A DNA stretch of 32,000 nt, from contig JBEKXS010000001.1 in assembly GCA_049511795.1 (NCBI GenBank), positions 120,001 through 152,000 of the forward strand. The letters are read 5' to 3'. Numbering within the stretch: position 1 is the stretch's first letter; every line of letters begins with the position of its first letter. Positions 4,893 to 31,671 of the stretch are shown here, piece by piece. Below the pieces are notes generated by a model. It did not search any database. It was not told the origin of the DNA and was given only the letters and a program-made list of their open reading frames with translations. The position numbers were made by a program, and so were the translations under genes. The stretch is from Candidatus Saccharimonadota bacterium (GTDB lineage: Archaea; Nanobdellota; Nanobdellia; Pacearchaeales; GW2011-AR1).

Positions 4893-5120
4893 TTTATTTC
4901 TTTATTTCACAAGTTTTAAAAGGGGAAAAAACATCTAGTTTTTGTAGAAAAGTACAGTAAGTAATTATCATAAGATAATCACATTCACCGAATGACGTTC
5001 GCACTGCGTTCGTCTTCACTTTCATTGTTTAGTTTTGAAAGAACCCCTTGTACACAGGGAAGAACAAAGTGTGCAGTATTTTTCTATGAATTAAATTTTT
5101 ACGGAGGTAAAAATAAGAAA

Positions 5121-6272
5121 ATGGCAAAAATAAGCCCTGTATCGATAAAATACATGATACATGCAAACTTCAGGGTCGAGGGCGCTTTGGAAAAACCTGA
5201 CGTAATCGGAGCCATATTCGGGCAGACAGAAGGTCTTTTGGGAGCTGACTTAGAAATGAGAGAGCTTCAGAAAGAAGGCAAAATCGGAAGGATTGAAGTC
5301 GAGCTTGAAAGAAAGGACAAGATTACAACAGGAAAAATAATGATTCCAACTGCACTTGACCAGTCAGAAACCACACTTATTGCTGCTGCTGTCGAAACCA
5401 TTGAGAAAATAGGACCTTGCGACTCCCAGATAGAAGTCGAAAGAATCGAGGATGTAAGAGGCTCCAAAAGAGACTATATCATTGAAAGAGCAAAGAAACT
5501 TATGGGAGAATTGAAAGGCACAACAGACTCAAGGGAAATCTCAAAGGAAATCAAAGATTCTGCGAGAACAGCAGGAGTAAAAGAATATGGGGATGAAAAA
5601 CTTCCTCACGGAGATATTTCTGGCAACGAAGTCATCGTTGTAGAAGGAAGAGCAGATGTTCTTAACTTAATGAGGGCAGGAGTCAGCAATGTTATCGCTA
5701 TGAACGGAACAAAACTTCCAGAAGCAATAAAGGCACTTTCACAGGAAAAAGAGATAACTCTTTTCATTGATGGTGACCGTGGCGGAAAGCTCATAGCTCA
5801 GAACGTTGTGGAAAATGCAAGAATAAAATATATTGCAGTTGCTCCTGATGGAAAAGAAGTAGAAGAACTCGCAGGCAAAGAGATACTCATGTGCCTGAGA
5901 AAAAAAATACCTGCAGAAGATTTTTCTTCAAGCAGATATAACAGCAGAACTTCAGAATCAAAATCTGGCAGCTCTGCTTCCTCTTCTTTTTTGAATGAAA
6001 AAAACAAATTAATAATCAAAGAAATAGCAAAGAAAAATGAAGGAACTGGAAAAGCAGTCCTGTTAAATGATTCTCTTGAAGACATAAAAGATATTCCTGC
6101 AAAAAGCTTGGTAAGTTTTTTAAGAAAAACAAGAAGCAATCCAAGCGTGATAATTCTTGACGGAACAGCAACAAAATCAACAATAGAAGTCGCGGAAGAG
6201 GCAAGAGCAAGGGTTCTTGCTGCGAAGAATTTCACGACTACAGACACAAATCTCGAATTGATGAGCTTTTAG
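5121..6272 (+). CDS. dnaG: Archaeal DnaG-type primase / exosome-associated Toprim protein
   Basis: Toprim motifs VIVVEGRADVLNLMRAG...NGTK and LFIDGDRGGKLI, with an archaeal DnaG N-terminus MAKISPVSIKYMIHANF.V.G. GGAGGT lies about 10 nt upstream of the ATG at 5121. The 43 codons upstream in the ORF track (4992-5120) look non-coding. Confidence 0.9.
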   Translation: MAKISPVSIKYMIHANFRVEGALEKPDVIGAIFGQTEGLLGADLEMRELQKEGKIGRIEVELERKDKITTGKIMIPTALDQSETTLIAAAVETIEKIGPCDSQIEVERIEDVRGSKRDYIIERAKKLMGELKGTTDSREISKEIKDSARTAGVKEYGDEKLPHGDISGNEVIVVEGRADVLNLMRAGVSNVIAMNGTKLPEAIKALSQEKEITLFIDGDRGGKLIAQNVVENARIKYIAVAPDGKEVEELAGKEILMCLRKKIPAEDFSSSRYNSRTSESKSGSSASSSFLNEKNKLIIKEIAKKNEGTGKAVLLNDSLEDIKDIPAKSLVSFLRKTRSNPSVIILDGTATKSTIEVAEEARARVLAAKNFTTTDTNLELMSF

Positions 6273-8394: not shown

Positions 8395-9024
8395 TTAATC
8401 CCCTTCAACAAAAGGCACAAAGACAAAACCAGGCAGCCGTTTTTTTATCTCAAACTCTGCCTCTGAATGCCTTTCAATAACAATTATTTCCTGCTCAAAG
8501 CGCGAGCCTTTTGGAGCGACAAGAATTCCTCCATGAGTTTTGAGCTGAGCCATTATTTTCTCGGGAACATCTCGCAATGCAGCGCTGATAAGGATCCTGT
8601 CAAACTTTGCCTCATCTGGAAATCCATTTGAGCCGTTTCTTTTGTAAATTTTAATGTTTTTGTATCCTGCATCTTCAATGTTTTCTTTTGATTTTTTCAC
8701 AAGCTCTGGAATAATTTCAAGACCGATAACTTTTCCTGTTTTTCCGATAAGCTCTGAAATAAGAGCAAGAACATAACCTGAGCCTGATCCTATCTCAAGA
8801 ACTTTCTGCCCTGGCTTAAGGTGAAGATTTGAAAGCATAAGGGCAATTGTATAAGGCTGTGAAGTTGTCTGGCCTTTTGTAAGTGGCAAAGGGGTGTCTT
8901 CATAAGCCATTTTCTTCAGATTATTTGATATGAAGTTCTCCCTGTTAACTTTTGAAAAAGCATCTATTATTTTCTCTGGTGCTCCTCTTTCCCTGAGGCT
9001 CCATAGCAGCTCTTTCTTGTTCAT
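8395..9024 (-). CDS. pcm: Protein-L-isoaspartate O-methyltransferase
   Basis: The motifs TSQPYTIALMLSNLHLKPGQKVLEIGSGSGYVLALISELIG..GKVIGLEI and ...DRILISAA... are canonical for PIMT. I chose the start at the ATG at 9024 (MNKKELL...) because TATTTAAA starts 29 nt upstream. The ORF track extends to 9066. Confidence 0.9.
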   Translation of the reverse strand: MNKKELLWSLRERGAPEKIIDAFSKVNRENFISNNLKKMAYEDTPLPLTKGQTTSQPYTIALMLSNLHLKPGQKVLEIGSGSGYVLALISELIGKTGKVIGLEIIPELVKKSKENIEDAGYKNIKIYKRNGSNGFPDEAKFDRILISAALRDVPEKIMAQLKTHGGILVAPKGSRFEQEIIVIERHSEAEFEIKKRLPGFVFVPFVEGD

Positions 9025-14489: not shown

Positions 14490-15077
14490 TTAATCCAAGG
14501 CAACAAACTTATCCCTGCCTGTCTGTTTTGCCTTGTAAAGAGCTTGGTCAACACGCTCTTTTATTTTTTTCTCTGAGTCATCTCTTCTGTATTCTGTTAA
14601 ACCGCCAGAAACAGTCAAGCCATATTTCTTGAATATAGTATCTGATTTTATTGCGTCTCTAAGCCTTGAAGTTATCGTTTTTGCTTTTTCAAGATCTGTT
14701 TGTGGAAGGAGAATCATAAACTCTTCTCCACCAAATCTTGCAATGACATCAGGAGTTCTTAGCTGGTTCACAAGCATTTTTGAAAGCCTTACAAGAAATT
14801 CATCTGCTTTCATATGCCCGTATTTGTCATTTATTTTTTTGAAGAAGTCAACATCTATCATGAAAAGAGAAAGATGTTCCTGATTTCTCCTTGCCTTCTC
14901 TATTTCCATGTTAAAAACATTGTCAAAGAACTTCATGTTATACAATCCGGTTTTTTCGTCATGAGTTGCAATTTCATAAAGCCAAGAAACATATTTTTTA
15001 TCAGAAGGCTTAACGCTTTTGAAGAGTTTTTCTATTTTTTCCCTGAAATCTTTTCCAAATGCTGCTTTCTTACTCAT
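14490..15077 (-). CDS. Stand-alone GGDEF-domain protein (putative diguanylate cyclase)
   Basis: Matches the GGDEF family along the whole domain: HDEKTGLYNMKFF, FMIDVDFFKKINDKYGHMKADEFL, RTPDVIARFGGEEFMILLP, LTVSGGL and VDQALYKAKQTGRDKF. GGEEF is encoded at nt 14718-14732. RTPD, an RxxD motif five residues upstream, is encoded at nt 14748-14759. The ATG at 15077 has TTTATTAA 29 nt upstream; the track start at 15083 is TTG. Confidence 0.85.
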   Translation of the reverse strand: MSKKAAFGKDFREKIEKLFKSVKPSDKKYVSWLYEIATHDEKTGLYNMKFFDNVFNMEIEKARRNQEHLSLFMIDVDFFKKINDKYGHMKADEFLVRLSKMLVNQLRTPDVIARFGGEEFMILLPQTDLEKAKTITSRLRDAIKSDTIFKKYGLTVSGGLTEYRRDDSEKKIKERVDQALYKAKQTGRDKFVALD

Positions 15078-15098
15078 TAGCAATTTAACAATTTTTAT

Positions 15099-24205: not shown

Positions 24206-24258
24206 AAATTAATTTTTTCAACGCTAATTTAATAAACTCTTTTTTCTTTATGATTTTG

Positions 24259-24774
24259 ATGGAAAAAAGAGGGCAATTTTATCTTGTTGCTGCAATAATC
24301 ATCACAGTTATTGTCATGGGAATTGCTGCCATTTCAAATTATTCAATAAAATCAGAACCGACAAATGTTGAAGCATTAAAAGAGCAAATACAAACAGAAA
24401 GCACAAAAACAATTGATTATGGCATAAACAAACCATTAGACCAAAACGGGATGTTCAATCTTCTTACTGATTTCACCCAGCAATACATAAATTCTGAATC
24501 AAGGGACAAAAATCTTTACTTCATTTTCGGCACAAAAACAAACATGACTTTGAATGGTTTTCAAAATACAAATAATAATGTTCTTTTAGATAATGCTGCA
24601 GTTACTTCAAACAGCAATAGTGCATTTTTGTATAGTGAAGTGCCTGCAAACCCTAATTTAGTAATATTAACAATAAATCAAACAGACTATGATTTTAACT
24701 TAAGCGATGGGCAAAATTTCTTTTTTGTAATTTCTCAGCAAACAGGAGGTGAAACAGATGTTGTCAGTTGGTAA
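24259..24774 (+). CDS. Type IV pilin-like protein with a class III signal peptide
   Basis: MEKRGQ/FYLVAAIIITVIVMGIAAI has a short basic leader, a G-Q cleavage-type site and a hydrophobic helix. The body is N/T-rich with N-x-S/T sequons. The track start is the ATG at 24250. The ATG at 24259 fits the class III leader and the upstream TTTAATAA better. Confidence 0.6.
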   Translation: MEKRGQFYLVAAIIITVIVMGIAAISNYSIKSEPTNVEALKEQIQTESTKTIDYGINKPLDQNGMFNLLTDFTQQYINSESRDKNLYFIFGTKTNMTLNGFQNTNNNVLLDNAAVTSNSNSAFLYSEVPANPNLVILTINQTDYDFNLSDGQNFFFVISQQTGGETDVVSW

Positions 24775-26011
24775 ATGGAAGAAGAATAAATTAGGTGTCA
24801 GCGTCATAATCGGCTATATTCTTCTTGTTGCCTTTGCAGTTGTGACTGGAGCAATTGTTTACAACTACCTAAGAACATATGTTCCAACACAACCATTGTC
24901 ATGTCCTGATGGAGTTTCACTTTTTGTTCAGGATTCAAACTACTGCGGAAACCAGCTAAATCTTACGATAAGAAACAATGGAAGATTTGATGTTGCTGGC
25001 TATTATATCAGGGCAACAAATTCATCAAGCCAAACAATCCCAATTATTGACCTTTCTTCTTCTTTAAACAGCACTTACGGCGGATTCCCAAATGGAAACT
25101 TAATTATGTTTTCTCCTGCAAACAATAACTCTTTTACAGCAGGAAATCAGACAATGCATGTGTACACTATTTCATCATCATTAGGAAATATCTCTTCTAT
25201 ACAAATAGTTCCTGCAGTTTATGAAGTCCAGAACAACAGAAATATTTTAGCAAGATGCTCAAATGCAATCCAAACTGAAAGCGACATTCAATGTACAGTT
25301 GGTTGTATTCCCGCAATAAATGATAATTTAAACGCAATTTGTGGAATAAGAGTTTGTGGAACACAACAGAATGGGACATGCGGTTCTATTAGTTGCGGAA
25401 CTTGTACAGGTGGGAATGTATGCAACTCAACAGGGCAATGTGTTTCTCAATCACAATGCATAGACACATGTACAAACTTAGGATTTCAATGCGGAACCCA
25501 TACAGTTTGTGGAGTAAATACTCTTTGTGGAACATGTAGTGGAACAAATAATCTTTGTAATTCAACAGGGCAGTGTGTATCTTCTCTTTGCGGAACCCCT
25601 GATCAAGTTTGCAGCAGCGGAGGTTCCCAATCATGTACTATAAATGGGTACCCAGGAACACAAACATGTAATTCTCAATGTACTGCATGGAGTGCATGCA
25701 CAACAACTTATGGAAATGGTGTCTGTGATCCCGGAGAAACTTGTGCAGAACCAGCATGCCAGGGTTATCAAGCAGCATGTACATCAGGAAATGTTTGTAT
25801 TTCAGGTTCATGTCAACCAATAGGCGGTGGAAGCACATGCACAAATTACTGCATAAGTTTAGTTAATCATAATCCTAGATACACAAGCGGCAGCTGCCTT
25901 TCTAGTTCAGACCAATGTCAAACTAATGGTGGGACTTATGAATCAGGAGGAAACCCATATTGCCCTCTTGGTTCGTCTCTATCGCCTACAGGAACATGCT
26001 GTTGTTTTTAA
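24758..26011 (+). CDS. Large type IV pilin-like protein with a cysteine-rich C-terminal module
   Basis: GGAGGTG lies 7 nt upstream of the ATG at 24758; the track start at 24749 is a GTG inside that SD. The N-terminus MLSVGKWKKNKLG/VSVIIGYILLVAFAVVTGAIVYNY is an archaeal DUF361-type prepilin signal. In the C-terminal region of about 250 aa I count about 38 Cys, with repeats CGTCTGGNVCNSTGQCVS / CGTCSGTNNLCNSTGQCVS. The protein ends in ...GTCCCF. Confidence 0.72.
   Translation: MLSVGKWKKNKLGVSVIIGYILLVAFAVVTGAIVYNYLRTYVPTQPLSCPDGVSLFVQDSNYCGNQLNLTIRNNGRFDVAGYYIRATNSSSQTIPIIDLSSSLNSTYGGFPNGNLIMFSPANNNSFTAGNQTMHVYTISSSLGNISSIQIVPAVYEVQNNRNILARCSNAIQTESDIQCTVGCIPAINDNLNAICGIRVCGTQQNGTCGSISCGTCTGGNVCNSTGQCVSQSQCIDTCTNLGFQCGTHTVCGVNTLCGTCSGTNNLCNSTGQCVSSLCGTPDQVCSSGGSQSCTINGYPGTQTCNSQCTAWSACTTTYGNGVCDPGETCAEPACQGYQAACTSGNVCISGSCQPIGGGSTCTNYCISLVNHNPRYTSGSCLSSSDQCQTNGGTYESGGNPYCPLGSSLSPTGTCCCF
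25394..25585 (+). repeat. Intragenic direct repeat encoding the CGTC-x(4,5)-C-NSTGQCVS unit
   Basis: 25394-25450 (tgcggaacttgtacaggtgggaatgtatgcaactcaacagggcaatgtgtttctcaa) and 25526-25585 (tgtggaacatgtagtggaacaaataatctttgtaattcaacagggcagtgtgtatcttct) are clearly related at both DNA and protein level. Confidence 0.7.
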
Positions 26012-26017
26012 AATAAA

Positions 26018-26025
26018 TTTATAAA
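26018..26025 (+). promoter_or_regulatory. TATA box (TTTATAAA) for the pilin gene at 26047
   Basis: Starts 29 nt upstream of the ATG at 26047, implying a leaderless mRNA. Confidence 0.55.
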
Positions 26026-26046
26026 TTGCAAAAGCGTTGAATAAAA

Positions 26047-26529
26047 ATGATGAAGAGGATGAAAAAAAGAGGTTTGTCTCCTGTTATTGCGACAATGCTT
26101 CTTGTTGCAATGACAATTGCTCTTGCTCTTATTGTTTTCTTGTGGTTCCGAAGCTTCAATCAGGAAGCAATCACAAAATTCGGCGGAACAAACATAGATA
26201 TTGTATGCCAGCAAGTCCAGTTTGACGCAAATTATGATTCTAGTTCAGATACATTGTCAATTCAAAATTCAGGGAATGTTCCTGTATACAGTTTCAGCCT
26301 TCAGATACAAAAATCAGGAAGCCAGCAGACAATTGATATGACAAGTGCTGTTGCAGACTGGCCAAAAATCGGATTGCCTGTAAATGGAGTTTACTCCGGA
26401 GCAATTGACAGCACAGATGCAAGCGGCGCAAGCACGATAACTGTAATTCCTGTCTTGAGGGGAACTTCAAGCAGCGGAATAAAAACTCATGTTTGTTCTA
26501 GCCAGTACGGGAAGCAATTAACTGTATGA
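26047..26529 (+). CDS. Archaeal type IV pilin (DUF361-type N-terminus)
   Basis: MMKRMKKRG/LSPVIATMLLVAMTIALALIVFLWF is a textbook archaeal class III signal peptide with the (K/R)G-(L/V)SPVI motif. Confidence 0.82.
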   Translation: MMKRMKKRGLSPVIATMLLVAMTIALALIVFLWFRSFNQEAITKFGGTNIDIVCQQVQFDANYDSSSDTLSIQNSGNVPVYSFSLQIQKSGSQQTIDMTSAVADWPKIGLPVNGVYSGAIDSTDASGASTITVIPVLRGTSSSGIKTHVCSSQYGKQLTV

Positions 26530-27047
26530 AAATGAAATCAAAAAAAGGATTATCAGCTGTTGTGGAAACTATGATTATGATTGCTCTTGTAATTGCAGCT
26601 GTTTCAATAATCTGGGTCGTCATAAACAATACAATAAACACGCAATTGAATACAGCAAGCTCTTGCGCAAATGTTGTTGACAAAGTCACAATTGACCAGA
26701 GATATACTTGCTATAATGAAAGCTCTGACCAACTTAGACTTGCAATTAATGTTGGCGACATAAAAAATCTTCAGGACATTTTAGTTTCTATAACACAAGG
26801 CGGGCAGAGCAAAAGTTTTAAGATAAATACAGACAACGCCACTGACGGTTTGAAGTATTTTAACTGGTCAGGACCTATGCAAATTCCAGGACCAAATTCA
26901 GGATTAACATATATTTATCCAATGAACTCGCCTATTGTTCAATTTCCAGACCAAGTTGAAATTGCGCCAATTATCAACGGGAACACATGCACAGGACCTG
27001 CTCCTATAACACAAATAGACAGTTGCACATTGCTCGCTTCTGGATAA
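26526..27047 (+). CDS. Archaeal type IV pilin (DUF361-type N-terminus)
   Basis: MKMKSKKG/LSAVVETMIMIALVIAAVSIIWVVI. An ATGA start/stop overlap with the previous pilin gene indicates translational coupling. Confidence 0.8.
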   Translation: MKMKSKKGLSAVVETMIMIALVIAAVSIIWVVINNTINTQLNTASSCANVVDKVTIDQRYTCYNESSDQLRLAINVGDIKNLQDILVSITQGGQSKSFKINTDNATDGLKYFNWSGPMQIPGPNSGLTYIYPMNSPIVQFPDQVEIAPIINGNTCTGPAPITQIDSCTLLASG

Positions 27048-27100: not shown

Positions 27101-27667
27101 ATGAATCTGAAAAAGAGGTTTTTATTTGGAAAAACGCGCGGAAAAAATTATATCCAGGGGCAGGTTTGGGTAGAAACGGTTATCTATACCCTTGTTGCTT
27201 TTGCATTAATGGGGCTTGTTCTTGCATTTGTTGTTCCAAAAGTTCAGGAAACGCAAGACAAAGGAATCATACAGCAGTCAGTTGGAATAATGAACAACAT
27301 TGATACAACCATAAGAAATCTTGGGAGCCCGGGAAACCAGAGAGTTATACAATTAAGCATACAAAAAGGCTCTTTGACAATAAATGCCACAAGTGACCAG
27401 ATAATTTTCAACATTGAAAGCAATTACCAATACAGCCAGCCGGGAGAAAATGTCACAGTAGGAAACTTGGTCGTGCAGGATGAAAAAGAAAACAATATTG
27501 ATGTAATAAATATGGCATTGGATTACTCCGGATTGTATAATCTAAGCTACAATGGGCAGGAAATATCAAAGACATTAACAAGTGCCTCAACGCCATACAC
27601 TGTCACAATATCTGACCAAGGTCAGGATCCATCAGGAAATGCAATAATAAACTTTCAGGTAAGCTAA
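27101..27667 (+). CDS. Type IV pilin-like protein with a class III signal peptide
   Basis: MNLKKRFLFGKTRGKNYIQGQ/VWVETVIYTLVAFALMGLVLAFVV. The ORF-track extension back to 26987 overlaps the previous pilin gene and is rejected. Confidence 0.65.
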   Translation: MNLKKRFLFGKTRGKNYIQGQVWVETVIYTLVAFALMGLVLAFVVPKVQETQDKGIIQQSVGIMNNIDTTIRNLGSPGNQRVIQLSIQKGSLTINATSDQIIFNIESNYQYSQPGENVTVGNLVVQDEKENNIDVINMALDYSGLYNLSYNGQEISKTLTSASTPYTVTISDQGQDPSGNAIINFQVS

Positions 27668-27677
27668 AAATAAAAAA

Positions 27678-29222
27678 ATGGCAACGATAAAAGACTATCC
27701 AAGAGTCAAAATAAATTTCAATCCAGAAGTTCCTCCCTTAAAGATATCTAAGGATAAAACAAAAATAGATGTCCGTTACAGCGTTCTTGCTCCTTTTGCA
27801 TTTATACACATTCATTGGGACCCAAAAGAGTTTGAAGTTATGTACGAAATTGAAGAGCCAATACTTAATGCAGAAGAGCAGGCATATGCAGACCAGATTC
27901 TTAATGCAATGCGAGACATGATTGATTTTGACGTCATCGTCGAGAAAGACAATGAAAAGCTTCTTGAATACATTGACAAGAGATTTAAAATAATAGCGTT
28001 TGAGCTTGGACTGAACATTTCATATGAAGCTTACAAAAAAATATATTACTATCTTGTAAGGGATTTCATCGGCTTCAATGAAGTTGAGCCTTTGCTAAGA
28101 GATTATTTTGTTGAAGATATAGAGTGCAATGGTGCTGACAGCCCTGTTTACATTGTCCACAGAATTTTCAGGAACCTTAAAACAAATCTGATTTTCAAAA
28201 GCATTGATAGATTAGAAAATTTTGTAGAGAAACTGGCGCAAAGAAGCGGAAAATACATTTCATATGCCTCCCCGATACTTGATTCAACATTGCCTGACGG
28301 AAGCAGGGTAAATGCAACATACACAAAAGATATAACAAGCAGGGGACCAACATTTACAATCAGGAAATTCACAAAAACTCCATGGACACCTCCTCAACTT
28401 TTGGCTTTCCAGACCTTAAGCCCTGAAATGCTCGCATATTTGTGGATTTTAGTTCAATATAAAATGAATATTCTAATAACAGGAGGAACATCGTCGGGAA
28501 AAACAACTTTGCTTAATGCAATTGCATTCTTTATTCCGCCAGAGGCAAGGGTTGTTTCAATTGAAGATACGCGTGAACTTAATTTGCCAAGGGAAAACTG
28601 GCTTCCAAGCGTTGTGCGTAGTGCAACAGGGGCTGGAAATGTTGGTGAAATCGACCTTTTCACATTGCTGAAAAGCTCTTTCAGGCAAAATCCGGATTAT
28701 GTAATTGTGGGTGAAGTCAGGGGAGAAGAGGCATATGTTCTCTTCCAGGGAATGGCATCAGGGCACTCATCAATAAGCACTATCCACGCAGATTCTGTAG
28801 ACACTGTTATACAAAGATTGGAAACTCCACCAATCAACCTTTCGCCTACTCTTCTCAATGTACTTGATTGCGTATGCATCATGACGCATGCAATCGCAAA
28901 AAAGCAGGAAACAAGGAAGCTAAAGGAAATTGTTGAAATAATAAATGTAACTCCTGATGGCGTTGCTTTGACAAACACTCCTTTTATCTGGAATCCAAGC
29001 GATGACAGCTTCTACTTCAAGAAAAACAGCAAGATTTTCGAGAAAATATCAAAAAGATATGGAATTGATCCAAAGGAACTTGATGAAGAATTCAGGACAA
29101 GAGTCAAACTCCTTTACACCCTGTATGAACATAAAGTGTTTGGTTTCCAGGAATTCCAAGACGTTGTAACACAGTATTACAAGAAACCAAAAGAAACTTT
29201 GGCTAAATTTAATATTGGATAG
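27678..29222 (+). CDS. FlaI/ArlI-PilB/TadA-family type IV pilus (secretion) ATPase
   Basis: 514 aa. Walker A is ILITGGTSSGKTTLLNA, the Asp box is VVSIEDTRELNL, Walker B is PDYVIVGEVRGEEA and the His box is GHSSISTIHADS. The N-terminal domain is typical of archaeal FlaI-like ATPases. Confidence 0.92.
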   Translation: MATIKDYPRVKINFNPEVPPLKISKDKTKIDVRYSVLAPFAFIHIHWDPKEFEVMYEIEEPILNAEEQAYADQILNAMRDMIDFDVIVEKDNEKLLEYIDKRFKIIAFELGLNISYEAYKKIYYYLVRDFIGFNEVEPLLRDYFVEDIECNGADSPVYIVHRIFRNLKTNLIFKSIDRLENFVEKLAQRSGKYISYASPILDSTLPDGSRVNATYTKDITSRGPTFTIRKFTKTPWTPPQLLAFQTLSPEMLAYLWILVQYKMNILITGGTSSGKTTLLNAIAFFIPPEARVVSIEDTRELNLPRENWLPSVVRSATGAGNVGEIDLFTLLKSSFRQNPDYVIVGEVRGEEAYVLFQGMASGHSSISTIHADSVDTVIQRLETPPINLSPTLLNVLDCVCIMTHAIAKKQETRKLKEIVEIINVTPDGVALTNTPFIWNPSDDSFYFKKNSKIFEKISKRYGIDPKELDEEFRTRVKLLYTLYEHKVFGFQEFQDVVTQYYKKPKETLAKFNIG

Positions 29223-29465: not shown

Positions 29466-30788
29466 ATGGCAATAGACGAACTGAAAGCTAATTTTGAAAG
29501 AGAGAAGAAAATAGCTGACCAAATAAGTTCCTTAACTCAGGAGCTGAACAATTCCGAAAGCGATGAAGAAAGAAGAATGATTTCATCGCAGATAAACATA
29601 CTGAAATCATCGCTAAGAAAATCAAGTCAAGGCGTTGTCAATGCTGCGGAAAACATTTCAATGCCAAATCCGCTGCCAACACAGACAAAAACTGCATTGC
29701 CTGTTGTTAAAGCAAAACCTGCAGCAGCACAGACAGGAAAACCAGTGTTCACAGGAAAAGTTGAGGATTTGTTTCCTGCATTTACATTAAGAAAGCAAAA
29801 AGTGTCTAGTCTTGAAAAAGACACAATAAAAAGACTAAAGAAAAAAGAAGTTGTTGTTGCAAAGAAAAAAGAAAAAACTCCAAGTGTTTATGTAAAATTT
29901 GCAAGCAACCTTTTTTACAAAAGAGCTGAAAAGCAGATTAAGAAAGGAAGTTTTTACAATTTAAGAAGGGATTTAATAAAAGGCAACCTTGATTTTGTTC
30001 CTGAAAGCTATATTTCTGTGATTTATTTTACAACCCTGATTTCATTCATTGCATCTATTTTTGTAATGATTTTTTTCCTTTTCTTTGACCTTATTGCCAC
30101 GCCGCCATTCCTGGTTGCAACAAAGACAGCAATCACAACAAGATTTTTGGAAACTTTCTGGATTCTTATTGTTCTTCCTGCTATTGTTTTTATTTTTGCA
30201 TATTTTTACCCGACGCTGGAGAAAAGATCCCTGGAAACAAGAATAAATGAAGAGCTTCCTTTTGCAGTAATCCACATGTCCTCTGTTTCAAGGTCAATGA
30301 TTGAGCCAAGCAAGATTTTCTCGATTATTATTGCTACAGGAGAATATCCTCATCTTGAAAAAGAATTTACAAAACTTTTCAATGATGTCAACATTTACGG
30401 CTATGACCTTGTTACTGCATTAAGGGATATGGCATTCAACAGCCCAAGCAGAAAGCTTTCTGATTTGTACAATGGGCTTGCAACAACAATAACTTCTGGC
30501 GGAGATCTTCCGGAATTTTTTGATAAAAGGGCGCAGACTCTTCTTTTTGACCATCGTCTTGAAACAGAAAAGCATGCAAAAGCTGCAGAAACATTCATGG
30601 ATATTTACATAAGCGTTGTCATAGCTTCTCCAATGATTCTTATGCTTTTGCTTGTAATGATGAGCGCAAGCGGCCTTGGATTAAGCCTGAGCACTTCAAT
30701 GATAAGCCTGATTATGGTTTTGGCAGTCACCTTGATGAATGTTTTATTCCTCGTATTTTTACACCTAAAACAGCCAGGAGGAGAATAA
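29466..30788 (+). CDS. Pilus platform membrane protein, first half (FlaJ/TadB-like T2SSF domain) with a long N-terminal cytoplasmic extension
   Basis: The T2SSF-like region is LPFAVIHMSSVSRSMIEPSKIF...YGYDLVTALRDMA...LATTITSGGDLPEFF. TM helices flank it, and about 170 aa of coiled-coil/K-rich sequence precede it. Confidence 0.8.
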   Translation: MAIDELKANFEREKKIADQISSLTQELNNSESDEERRMISSQINILKSSLRKSSQGVVNAAENISMPNPLPTQTKTALPVVKAKPAAAQTGKPVFTGKVEDLFPAFTLRKQKVSSLEKDTIKRLKKKEVVVAKKKEKTPSVYVKFASNLFYKRAEKQIKKGSFYNLRRDLIKGNLDFVPESYISVIYFTTLISFIASIFVMIFFLFFDLIATPPFLVATKTAITTRFLETFWILIVLPAIVFIFAYFYPTLEKRSLETRINEELPFAVIHMSSVSRSMIEPSKIFSIIIATGEYPHLEKEFTKLFNDVNIYGYDLVTALRDMAFNSPSRKLSDLYNGLATTITSGGDLPEFFDKRAQTLLFDHRLETEKHAKAAETFMDIYISVVIASPMILMLLLVMMSASGLGLSLSTSMISLIMVLAVTLMNVLFLVFLHLKQPGGE

Positions 30789-30804: not shown

Positions 30805-31671
30805 ATGGAACTAAAAAAAGGATATTGGGTCGGAATTGCATTCGGATTCCTAATTGTACTTGCCTCTCTTGCTTTCATAGGAACAAGATTTTTCCTTTTC
30901 ATAATTGGTATAGGGATTTTGACAATAGCTGCGCCTTTTGTGCTGGCAACAATAAATGAAACAAATGCAGCAACTGAGAAAGAAGACATGTTCCTTGAAT
31001 TTGCAAGAAATCTTGTTGAAAGCGTGAAAACAGGAACGCCAATAAGCAAGAGCATTGTCAATGTAAAGGACAAGCCATATGGCGTCTTGAGCGAGAACAT
31101 AAAAAAGCTTGCAAACCAAATTTCAATGGGAATACCATTGAACTCTGCGCTTCAAACATTTTCAAAAGATGTAAACAACAAAACTATTTCGAGGGCGCTA
31201 ACATTAATAGGGCAGGCAGAAAAAAGCGGCGGAGAAATTGGAGGAATTCTTGAATCTGTTACAGAAGCTGTCAGCACTTCTGACAGGCTGAAAAAAGAAA
31301 GGAAGGCAGCAATCTCAAGCCTTGTTGTCGAGGGATACATAATTTTCCTTGTGTTCATAGTTATTATTCTTGTCCTTCAATTCCAGATTCTTCCAATGAT
31401 TACAAACATAGTTCCTTCTGGTTCATCTTTAGGATTAGGAGGAATAGGAGGCCTTGGCGGAATTGGCGGGGGCGGAGGACAGCCAATAGACAAAACGCAA
31501 ATAGCAAATGCTTTCCTTTATCTGCTTCTTATTCAGGCATTTTTCACAGGCTTGACAATAGGAATGCTTTCTGAAGGCAGCATGAAGCCGGGAATAAAGC
31601 ACTCTTTCATCCTTATGGCAATTGCATTCTTGATTTCAGCAGGAGCAAATGTTTTGTTTGGGGGTGCTTAA
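30805..31671 (+). CDS. Pilus platform membrane protein, second half (FlaJ/TadC-like T2SSF domain)
   Basis: FLEFARNLVESVKTGTPISKSI...MGIPLNSALQTFSK....ISRALTLIGQAEKSGGEIGGILESV is a T2SSF signature. It has N-terminal and C-terminal TM helices and a Gly-rich insert GSSLGLGGIGGLGGIGGGGGQ. Confidence 0.8.
   Translation: MELKKGYWVGIAFGFLIVLASLAFIGTRFFLFIIGIGILTIAAPFVLATINETNAATEKEDMFLEFARNLVESVKTGTPISKSIVNVKDKPYGVLSENIKKLANQISMGIPLNSALQTFSKDVNNKTISRALTLIGQAEKSGGEIGGILESVTEAVSTSDRLKKERKAAISSLVVEGYIIFLVFIVIILVLQFQILPMITNIVPSGSSLGLGGIGGLGGIGGGGGQPIDKTQIANAFLYLLLIQAFFTGLTIGMLSEGSMKPGIKHSFILMAIAFLISAGANVLFGGA

Follow-up and report, generated by a model that had tools for sequence, protein, structure and literature searches.

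A probable modular type IV pilin with a cysteine-rich C-terminal cargo in a DPANN archaeon

The window considered here, which is the whole 32,000-nucleotide stretch that was analysed (positions 120,001 to 152,000 of contig JBEKXS010000001.1), belongs to an archaeal chromosome with a G+C content of approximately 36%, and carries at 24758-26011 on its forward strand a gene for a protein of 417 residues. With a probability of roughly 0.7, this protein is a type IV pilin of modular build, and probably a minor one, which presents a binding module and comes from a tiny symbiotic DPANN archaeon (Nanoarchaeota sensu lato, of the Woesearchaeales/Pacearchaeales type). Its first 180 residues have the architecture of an archaeal pilus subunit, and the 237 residues that follow make up a cysteine-rich cargo, in which a stalk leads to a terminal knob with eight cysteines. 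The modular adhesin-bearing pilin as a kind is already known from bacteria; the novelty lies in a family of archaeal scaffolds whose cargo slot varies, in the stalk and, above all, in the knob, which is common to DPANN pilins and to pilins with bacterial-type N-termini.

A pilin module and its separable cargo

The gene is intact, with a frame that is open from ATG to TAA and a GGAGGTG ribosome-binding site 7 nt 5′ of the ATG at 24758. Of the 40 cysteines in the protein, 38 occur from residue 165 on (38 in 253 residues, or 15.0%), mostly at intervals of 3-9 residues, as compared with 57 cysteines among the 8305 residues (0.69%) that are encoded by the 26 remaining open reading frames (ORFs) of the window. 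An original prediction, made from the letters of the sequence, had described an ORF with a dense array of cysteines in its C-terminal part, which is borne out; the frame is not broken in the manner of a pseudogene. The same prediction had spoken of many N-x-S/T sequons interleaved with the cysteines, which does not hold up. The whole protein contains nine sequons versus the 8.5 expected from its composition by shuffling, and the cysteine-rich part contains three versus 5.0, so that sequon enrichment was rejected.

Relatives of the protein are found in 138 species-level genomes. The 56 homologues on which the alignments are based range from 272 to 525 residues, with BLASTP identities of 31-49% (a value of 100% denotes the window's own protein), and most of them align nearly end to end, with cysteine columns that are at least 90% conserved.

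The N-terminus displays the features of an archaeal prepilin. A class III (prepilin) signal peptide occupies residues 1-13 (24758-24796, MLSVGKWKKNKLG), with predicted cleavage after Gly13. With a slash marking the predicted cleavage site, the signal reads KWKKNKLG/VSVIIGYILLVAF (also KWKKNKLG/VSVIIGYILLVAFAVVTGAIVY), placing a lysine at position -3 and a leucine at position -2. The motif [KR][KR][GA]/[VI]S is matched as a regular expression by 48 of 50 homologues, and position -2 is a lysine or arginine in 49 of 51 aligned homologue N-termini. The archaeal signal proposed at the outset is therefore not a peculiarity that orthologues have lost, but is kept in nearly all homologues that have an N-terminus. 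Downstream is a hydrophobic α1 helix (24797-24880, residues 14-41) that would pack in the pilus core. It contains Y20, L22 and L23, which are invariant in an alignment of 30 sequences and at least 90% conserved in the alignment of 56, and it is modelled by AlphaFold2 (AF2) as a helix spanning residues 12-41, with ten-residue blocks over residues 11-40 averaging 77, 97 and 87 in predicted local distance difference test score (pLDDT).

Immediately 3′ to the helix-coding segment is the region that specifies a β-sandwich (24881-25297, residues 42-180), which is marked by the conserved pair Cys49 and Cys167 and by CPDGVS and NNGRF motifs. In the AF2 model, which was built on the 56 homologues and has a mean pLDDT of 80, ten-residue block means reach at least 90 over residues 51-170 and fall to 66 at residues 41-50. 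The best Foldseek matches of the whole model in the PDB are a Pyrobaculum archaeal type IV pilus (8fk7, E = 6.9e-4), FlaF (4p94, E = 1.0e-3) and FlaG (5tuh, E = 5.8e-3). Curated profiles contribute little at this point: the bacterial N-terminal model PF07963 (N_methyl) of Pfam is not matched by the protein, Pilin_N matches 2 of the 56 homologues, and one homologue (P0044) matches TIGR02537 at E = 0.0047, below its cut-off. The protein is thus a pilin by architecture, fold and context rather than by curated profile. The initial assignment as a pilin-type protein with a β-rich region finds support in all of these respects, given the class III signal, the α1 helix, the β-sandwich resembling FlaF, FlaG and type IV pilus subunits, and a conserved type IV pilus operon (see below).

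Between the pilin module and the knob is a putative disulfide-rich stalk (25298-25828, residues 181-357) that consists of several sub-modules. Two of these are CG-rich units, unit A (25340-25447, residues 195-230, CGIRVCGTQQNGTCGSISCGTCTGGNVCNSTGQCVS; pLDDT ~90) and unit B (25490-25582, residues 245-275, CGTHTVCGVNTLCGTCSGTNNLCNSTGQCVS). They contain the duplication that had been pointed out in the original prediction, namely CGTCTGGNVCNSTGQCVS at residues 213-230 and CGTCSGTNNLCNSTGQCVS at residues 257-275, which is also apparent as a DNA repeat: segments 25394-25450 and 25526-25585 are identical at 40 of 57 positions, with a single 3-nt (one-codon) indel, and the best 33-nt core is 82% identical. 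It had been suggested that the copy number of the repeat might vary, and by a strict motif the number of CG-rich units does range from zero to three among homologues. An orthologous pilin of 625 residues from Nanoarchaeota archaeon SCGC AAA011-D5 (locus L040, 8001-9875) has three strict matches; by eye, it contains approximately five near-identical tandem copies of a 48-residue unit (SCVPASNPTLSGVCGSSVCGTAQNGTCSTVSCGTCTGGNSCNQTTGQCV), followed by an unassigned C-terminal domain of about 170 residues. From this locus, the copy number of the repeat looks evolvable.

The remainder of the stalk comprises a variable cysteine-rich insert (25589-25702, residues 278-315), which is modelled with a pLDDT below 50, is present only in some homologues and is mostly gapped in the alignment, and a unit (25712-25819, residues 319-354, GNGVCDPGETCAEPACQGYQAAC...GSCQP) that resembles the DUF4215 or myxo_disulf_rpt repeat. 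The latter includes the GNGVCDPGETCAEPAC element (residues 319-334) that had been listed at the outset. Several homologues have a canonical CGNGxxxxGExCDDGN..DGCSxxC sequence aligned with the GNGVCDPGETC... element of the window; PF13948 (DUF4215) is matched by 12 of the 56 homologues, and the Myxococcus cysteine-rich acidic repeat (TIGR02232) by P0023 (E = 1.8e-15) and P0044 (E = 1.1e-13). The window's own copy matches neither PF13948 nor TIGR02232, and residues 319-354 are, judged by alignment position, a degenerate derivative of this repeat. The likeness to these families is confined to one unit, since no more than about 35 of the 237 cargo residues fall within the repeat. The cysteine-rich part as a whole is modelled by AF2 as small β-hairpin modules, with pLDDT values of ~90 for residues 211-260. 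No family in Pfam (2025) or NCBIfam (2026) is matched by the stalk, and a PDB sequence search with it returned only noise.

Comparison of related loci shows that the cysteine-rich part is a grafted cargo that can be separated from a pilin module that is complete without it. Among 80 retrieved loci (designated by L numbers), nearly all of which are labelled Nanoarchaeota, Pacearchaeota or Woesearchaeota, the orthologue is a stand-alone pilin module of ~175-195 residues in 32, bears a cysteine-rich stalk and knob in 23, is cysteine-rich with no strict knob match in 12, and has some other C-terminal cargo in 12. Alternative cargo includes a Laminin_G_3 domain (E = 1.5e-16) and an unassigned β domain that ends in ...NITITGS. 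A tblastn search with the cargo gave one match among the loci, which is read as a limit of tblastn with a cysteine-rich, low-complexity query, because 23 of the 80 contain the knob according to a motif count.

Further types of cargo were observed on the same archaeal scaffold. In L049 (774-2108), the scaffold is followed by a sub-threshold Fibrinogen_C-like match (E = 1.9e-4, 21.7 versus 22 bits) with a CDMTRDGGGWT motif, and in L029 (match start 2229) by an endostatin/DUF1554-like domain (E = 3.8e-7). L039, L042 and L046 (match starts 3176, 4367 and 8001) are also of the endostatin/DUF1554-like type, as assigned by sequence similarity alone.

The boundary of the cargo is delineated by the nearest relative, L001, which is syntenic with the window at ~80% nucleotide identity. 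Homology between the two stops at window position 25295 and resumes at 26071; the break coincides with the junction between residues 180 and 181, in keeping with a separable cargo. The L001 orthologue is only 182 residues long, ending in ...SDLQCKT and a stop codon. Behind it is a 440-nt spacer (8549-8989 of L001) in which two remnants, both out of frame and interrupted by stops, follow each other in the expected order but in different frames: a CG unit (VCGSFSDGCGRTVNCG..NAGKICQSGNCV, at ~8594-8710, independent E-value 0.007) and a knob (..GDSFCAVENAKTCC.., at ~8728-8904, independent E-value 0.013). Because remnants of both elements persist in the spacer, the cargo appears to be ancestral and to have decayed recently in L001, with retention of the pilin module. 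A gain of the cargo in the lineage of the window was considered and rejected in favour of this loss.

The same relative has other cysteine-rich sequence nearby. A predicted secreted protein of 473 residues, rich in cysteine and in Asn, Ser and Thr, is encoded at 5188-6609 of L001, between a tRNA-Leu gene and the pilin operon, and is absent from the window. Just upstream of its gene (~5003-5191) is a DUF4215-like CGNGILNSGELC element.

The eight-cysteine knob and its carriers

The knob is encoded by positions 25829-26008 (residues 358-417) and has the spacing C-x3-C-x14-C-x6-C-x14-C-x11-CCC. It ends in the ...GTCCCF sequence that had been noted at the outset. In the family, the module corresponds to the last ~55 residues, for which the consensus is CxxYCxxLGYSxGxCRxNxxQCxxNGExYxxGGNxYCTGGPxADTCCCxP, and all eight cysteines are invariant or nearly so in an alignment of the form C-x3-C ... 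[YF]xxGxC ... C ... G[DN]x[YF]C ... CCC. The AF2 model places a helix at residues 361-367, a strand at 378-381, two short helices and a final strand at 413-416, with pLDDT values of ~85-90. The knob is covered by no Pfam or NCBIfam model and has no significant match in the PDB, and no description of it was found in the literature searched. The suggestion that this is not a described class of pilin is in keeping with these results, inasmuch as the cysteine-rich module lies outside Pfam and NCBIfam and no account of one was found in that literature.

An exhaustive profile search over 1.84 billion cluster representatives recovered the knob in 225 representative clusters at E ≤ 1e-3 and in 24 at E ≤ 1e-10. 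A word-index search with the same alignment had given two proteins, the index being poor for short profiles. Of the carriers, 147 were inspected. At least 70 of these start with a bacterial prepilin motif (G/F[ST]L[IV]E, of the G[FY][ST]L[IV]E type), 14 have the archaeal pilin scaffold of the window and 5 have another archaeal class III N-terminus (QxSxEY type). The 58 that were not classed include many N-terminally truncated fragments or variant pilins, and the rest of the carriers include an enzyme of the GH5 cellulase family, a CBM96 protein, surface proteins resembling FN3 or cadherin domains, and membrane-anchored proteins. The knob is also present on pilins that bear Laminin_G_3 domains. 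The module often follows a Pro/Thr linker and is present in one to three copies. On the basis of these profile comparisons, the terminal knob is shown to be homologous to a module at the C-terminal end of pilins with bacterial-type N-termini and of other extracellular proteins.

PF07963 (N_methyl) is confirmed in several of the bacterial-type carriers, whose pilin parts bear a weak likeness to the minor pseudopilins GspI, ComGE and PilV. The named bacterial carriers are annotated as prepilin, PilV or PulG of Patescibacteria group bacterium and Parcubacteria bacterium (including DG_74_3), and one carrier (P0290) is a second pilin gene positioned directly downstream of PilB- and PilC-type genes. 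Archaeal and bacterial knobs are as much as 67% identical, with a median best identity of 56%, which is no lower than the identity of the window's knob to its best archaeal match (58%). The remark in the original prediction that such dense cysteine content is unusual for a surface protein of a presumably anaerobic archaeon was overstated, as this architecture is widespread among Nanoarchaeota, pilins with bacterial-type N-termini commonly carry the knob, and CPR bacteria (of the candidate phyla radiation) are reported to be enriched in disulfide machinery (bioRxiv 10.1101/335083).

A terminal ...CCCF might suggest a C-terminal signal for sorting, lipidation or recognition of the archaeosortase type. 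This was rejected, since the knob is internal or tandem in P0044 (L010), in P0074 and in many bacterial-type proteins, so that ...CCCF is regarded as a structural feature rather than as a C-terminal tag. In two bacterial-type pilins, P0273 and P0295, the place of the knob on the same bacterial scaffold is taken by a repeat rich in cysteine and tryptophan, C..TPTPC..F..Q..C..Q.GC.W; the precomputed annotation of P0273 is PF27776.

Proposed role and alternative explanations

The most likely course of events begins with cleavage after Gly13 by a prepilin peptidase, after which the α1 helix would anchor the subunit in the pilus. The tip, alongside the other minor pilins, is its most probable place, since cargo of this bulk would cause clashes within the shaft. 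Approximately 18-19 disulfides would form among the cysteines and thereby yield a rigid, protease-resistant stalk, at the end of which the knob would bind a ligand on the envelope of a host cell or on some other surface. A glycan is the first guess, since the knob keeps company with LamG, CBM96 and GH5 domains. Swapping or loss of the cargo between related species would then retune the adhesion specificity of the pilus. The knob also occurs on pilus subunits of ultrasmall bacteria of the candidate phyla radiation (CPR) and is therefore a good candidate for the host-gripping part. The module had been taken in the original prediction for a tip adhesin or receptor-binding module, which is plausible by analogy. 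Binding is backed indirectly by the lectin-type domains that occupy the same slot and by the presence of the knob on Laminin_G_3 pilins and on GH5 and CBM96 proteins; tip location and binding themselves are the conjectural part of the claim.

Several bacterial systems provide the analogy. In Streptococcus sanguinis, the modular pilins PilB and PilC, which carry a vWA module and a ConA-like lectin module, respectively (Raynaud et al. 2021, PMC8179133), are adhesins predicted to reside at the pilus tip (PMC8179133). The protein of the window shares with them a small pilin module with a C-terminal grafted module, a position among pilin genes beside those for an ATPase and a platform protein, and an expected location at the tip. 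Diverse cargo on one scaffold is likewise common to both, and includes Laminin_G_3/ConA-like cargo on the archaeal scaffold. The archaeal protein differs in its scaffold, which combines a class III signal lacking the N-methyl GFxxxE motif with a β-sandwich of the FlaF/FlaG kind, and in its cargo, which is a disulfide-rich stalk with an eight-cysteine knob rather than a catalogued domain. What defines a modular pilin is nonetheless found here as well, in that 32 of the 80 loci have the pilin module by itself, the cargo is swapped, and the knob is also present on GH5, CBM96 and cadherin-like proteins that are not pilins.

Similar comparisons can be drawn with minor pilins elsewhere. In Saccharibacteria, which are likewise ultrasmall episymbionts, the large minor pilins PilX1 and PilX2 have C-terminal accessory domains that are lectin-like, and PilX2 is needed for efficient host binding (PMC11623550). 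Those domains are a β-jelly-roll and a β-propeller, in contrast to the cysteine-rich stalk and knob of the archaeal protein, and those pilins are bacterial and experimentally tested, whereas the role proposed here is assigned by analogy. The type IVb minor pilins CofB and TcpB, which start assembly, are located at the tip and mediate binding (PMC5207764; PMC8179133), also consist of a pilin domain followed by extra C-terminal domains, although these are of β-repeat and β-sandwich types. Among archaea, the type IV filament "system 1", to which the Epd-type pili of Methanococcus and its relatives belong, is described as having a split platform and several pilins and as occurring in methanogens and DPANN archaea (bioRxiv 10.64898/2026.04.22.720090). 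Some of its loci carry adhesin-like proteins or proteins with galactose-binding domains that have class III signals (bioRxiv 10.64898/2026.04.22.720090; Makarova et al. 2016, PMC4858521). The operon of the window resembles this system in its split platform and multiple pilins, a likeness of gene layout. The target pilin family, its variable cargo slot and the eight-cysteine knob are not described in the searched text of either source (bioRxiv 10.64898/2026.04.22.720090; PMC4858521).

Several observations weigh against an adhesive pilin. Foldseek gives the pilin module a marginal, though coherent, match (E ~1e-3, with template-modelling scores on the target of 0.39-0.41, and of 0.39-0.48 over the three best matches); no Pfam model, including PF07790 (Pilin_N), is matched by the protein at E ≤ 1; and its sole NCBIfam match is to UpsA (E = 0.011, 15.8 bits versus a cut-off of 130). 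Modelled separately by AF2 (mean pLDDT 79), the C-terminal part has no significant structural neighbour in Foldseek searches (best E-values of 2 in the PDB and 0.66 in BFVD), and for this reason its fold offers no functional clue. The insignificant PDB matches, with probabilities of at most 0.06, are to reovirus sigma1 and to the cysteine-rich repeats of the LDL receptor/megalin and the insulin receptor. It follows that the EGF, knottin or granulin fold that had been entertained at the outset is not borne out, there being no Pfam match at E ≤ 1 and no better PDB match than the one at E = 2. By the same token, no clear match ties the cargo of the window to a known domain family that might imply an unrelated function, as it is covered by no model in Pfam or NCBIfam and has no significant fold match in the PDB. 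The bacterial affiliation of the carriers is judged from pilin type and from a few named records (names for 2 of 10 in the cluster-member listing). Finally, processing, incorporation into a pilus, tip location, the state of the disulfides and the ligand are all deduced from sequence.

The class III signal and α1 helix might serve only as an anchor that fixes the cysteine-rich module in the membrane or on a very short pseudopilus, in the way of the Sulfolobus bindosome, with the cargo acting at the cell surface. Archaeal class III signals are also used on proteins that do not form pili, an extended filament is not evident from the data, the neighbouring pilins weakly match the bindosome protein BasC, and the ATPase matches BasE. 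However, these matches are far below their cut-offs (BasC at E = 0.04; BasE at 204 bits versus 1000), the conserved layout of five pilins, an ATPase and a platform is typical of pilus systems, and the fold of the module matches filament subunits, so that a surface anchor of this kind seems unlikely. Alternatively, the cysteines could bind zinc or Fe-S clusters, in the service of redox chemistry and electron transfer or of a metal-stabilised fold, instead of forming the disulfides of an adhesin. A cysteine density of 15%, eight invariant cysteines within 55 residues and the often anoxic habitat of these archaea are what such a proposal would predict. It is nonetheless very improbable: spacings of the CxxC...CxxC, CxxCH or ferredoxin type are lacking, no metal-binding family is matched in Pfam or NCBIfam, the cysteine counts are even (40 in the protein and eight per knob) in a protein that is exported, and knob modules follow Pro/Thr linkers on secreted enzymes and pilins. 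In addition, CPR bacteria are reported to encode, and to be enriched in, disulfide machinery of the MdbA/VKOR type that is proposed to act on pilins (bioRxiv 10.1101/335083). The chance that the gene is an artefact or in decay, whether as a chance ORF, an assembly chimera or a pseudogene, is negligible. The loss of the cargo in the closest relative is consistent with decay, but the open frame with its ribosome-binding site, an identical protein on nine contigs (the longest of 508 kb), 56 mostly near full-length homologues with their cysteine columns, and an AF2 model that is confident across most of the cargo already refute it, as far as can be judged from sequence.

A different kind of alternative concerns what the knob would do. 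It may be a defensin-like (cysteine-stabilised α/β) effector that acts on membrane lipids or cell-wall precursors of the host, and would then perturb membranes or bind lipids rather than serve as an adhesin of the lectin type. The cysteine pattern and the predicted secondary structure are suggestive in this respect, in that CxxxC falls within the predicted helix and GxC within a strand, and the last strand contains CxC (as CCC). Like the defensins of insects and plants, nasonin and plectasin, the knob displays C-x3-C ... G-x-C ... C-x-C in a predicted order of helix, strand and strand. Six of its ten best PDB sequence matches are defensin-type or related small disulfide peptides that align over the same C..YC..GY.G.C segment, namely an arthropod defensin (2ru0), a plant gamma-thionin-like protein (4uj0), nasonin-1 (2koz), two insect defensin variants and hydramacin; among bacterial carriers, P0081 matches Pfam Gamma-thionin at E = 0.0014 and P0230 matches Defensin_2 at E = 0.012. 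All of these matches are below significance, however, at E = 0.07-0.8 in the PDB and under the gathering cut-offs in Pfam. When the knob was compared by hhalign with a hand-assembled alignment of defensins, the probability was 13.7% over 17 columns, on account of which the knob is not filed as a defensin and the resemblance is taken as a lead, and Foldseek of the C-terminal model returned no defensin (best E-value 2). Moreover, the knob has eight cysteines and a long insert of ~30 residues where defensins have a tight hairpin, and it belongs to a large exported protein rather than being a free peptide. An effector of this type is accordingly quite unlikely. A broader conception, which we regard as doubtful, is that the knob represents a hitherto unrecognised domain family, which passed between CPR bacteria and DPANN archaea and became attached to their unrelated pilin scaffolds, and that it is defensin-like, recognising and perhaps locally perturbing the host envelope through lipids or wall precursors. 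If that were so, both radiations of ultrasmall episymbionts would share a device for engaging hosts at the pilus tip, and the variable cargo slot of the second pilin would help to set the range of hosts.

By what means DPANN archaea and CPR bacteria, few of which have been cultured, locate their hosts and stay attached to them is a central question that is still open. For a modular pilin that presents a binding module, the second pilin gene of a conserved operon provides a concrete locus at which cargo is swapped, expanded or lost, as expected of a determinant of host or surface specificity. The knob is a compact module of ~55 residues with eight cysteines that is shared across domains of life on unrelated pilin scaffolds. 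It could serve as a sequence marker for finding attachment genes in metagenomes and for following the exchange of genes across domains between the two ultrasmall radiations, and it could be expressed for tests on glycan arrays, lipid panels and candidate host cells. The concept of the modular pilin is at the same time extended to archaea, as the earlier survey of such proteins took in only those with the bacterial N-terminal motif IPR012902 (PMC8179133).

The pilus operon and other features of the window

The modular pilin gene, whose pilin module keeps second place in this conserved operon throughout, is the second of five pilin-like genes (starting at 24250, 24758, 26047, 26526 and 27101), which are followed by a gene for an ATPase of the FlaI/PilB type and then by a FlaJ/TadC-type platform that is split between two genes. 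This order is kept in approximately 65-74 of the 80 loci, with most misses at contig ends. Gene 1 (24250-24774, forward strand, as are all genes of the operon) encodes 174 residues beginning MEKRG/QFYLVAAIII..., overlaps the modular pilin gene by 17 nt and has a homologue directly upstream in 74 of the 80 loci. Gene 3 (26047-26529; 160 residues, KKRG/LSPVIATMLLV) is conserved in 71 loci and is a candidate for the major pilin; it matches TIGR02537 (arch_flag_Nterm) above the cut-off, at E = 3.1e-8, and Pilin_N below it (E = 1.2e-4, 23.3 versus 25.2 bits). Gene 4 (26526-27047; 173 residues, SKKG/LSAVVETMIMI) is present in 66 loci and matches Pilin_N below the cut-off, at E = 1.2e-3. Gene 5 (27101-27667, from the ATG at 27101), with the sequence ...IQG/QVWVETVIYTLVAF and a glutamate at position +5, is found in 65 loci and has a weak match to the N-terminal model of GspG (E = 0.011). 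Its predicted mature N-terminus, G/QVWVET, thus has the Glu at +5 in bacterial style, and the orthologue in L001 is alike (GQIWVET); the remaining four pilins of the operon have no Glu5.

Downstream of the pilin genes is that of the filament assembly ATPase of the FlaI/PilB/VirB11 family (27678-29222), which matches PF00437 (T2SSE) at E = 4.3e-33 and the FlaI model at E = 2.4e-119, the latter with 399 bits against an equivalog cut-off of 550. The first half of the FlaJ/TadC-like platform (29466-30788) matches PF00482 (T2SSF) at E = 2.2e-13 and the ArlJ/FlaJ model at E = 5.1e-24, with 84.9 bits and thus well below the cut-off of 550; the second half (30805-31671) matches PF00482 at E = 1.7e-15. 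The ATPase gene and the two platform genes are linked to the pilin genes in 62, 47 and 43 of the 80 loci, respectively, and many of the misses are at contig ends. No peptidase A24 gene is present in the window. A complete archaeal pilin operon also occurs in two metagenome-assembled genomes labelled as a Bacillota and a Spirochaetia bacterium, respectively (L029, DATKUW010000088.1; L031, CAJXGR010000039.1); these contigs are probably binning contaminants.

The spacer of 35 nt between the modular pilin gene and gene 3 (26012-26046) contains TTTATAAA at 26017-26024, 22 nt before the ATG at 26047. This element may act as an internal TATA box of archaeal type, from which a leaderless or short-leader transcript would arise, as would be expected if gene 3 encodes the major pilin.

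Elsewhere in the window are genes for aEF-1alpha, a Toprim primase, SMC, RNase HII, a D-aminoacyl-tRNA deacylase of archaeal type, IleRS, ArgRS and TrmB regulators. The reverse strand at 14490-15083 encodes a stand-alone GGDEF diguanylate cyclase domain protein of 197 residues (PF00990, E = 8.6e-40), located on this DPANN chromosome. Because cyclic di-GMP cyclases are rare in archaea, it may be a horizontal acquisition.

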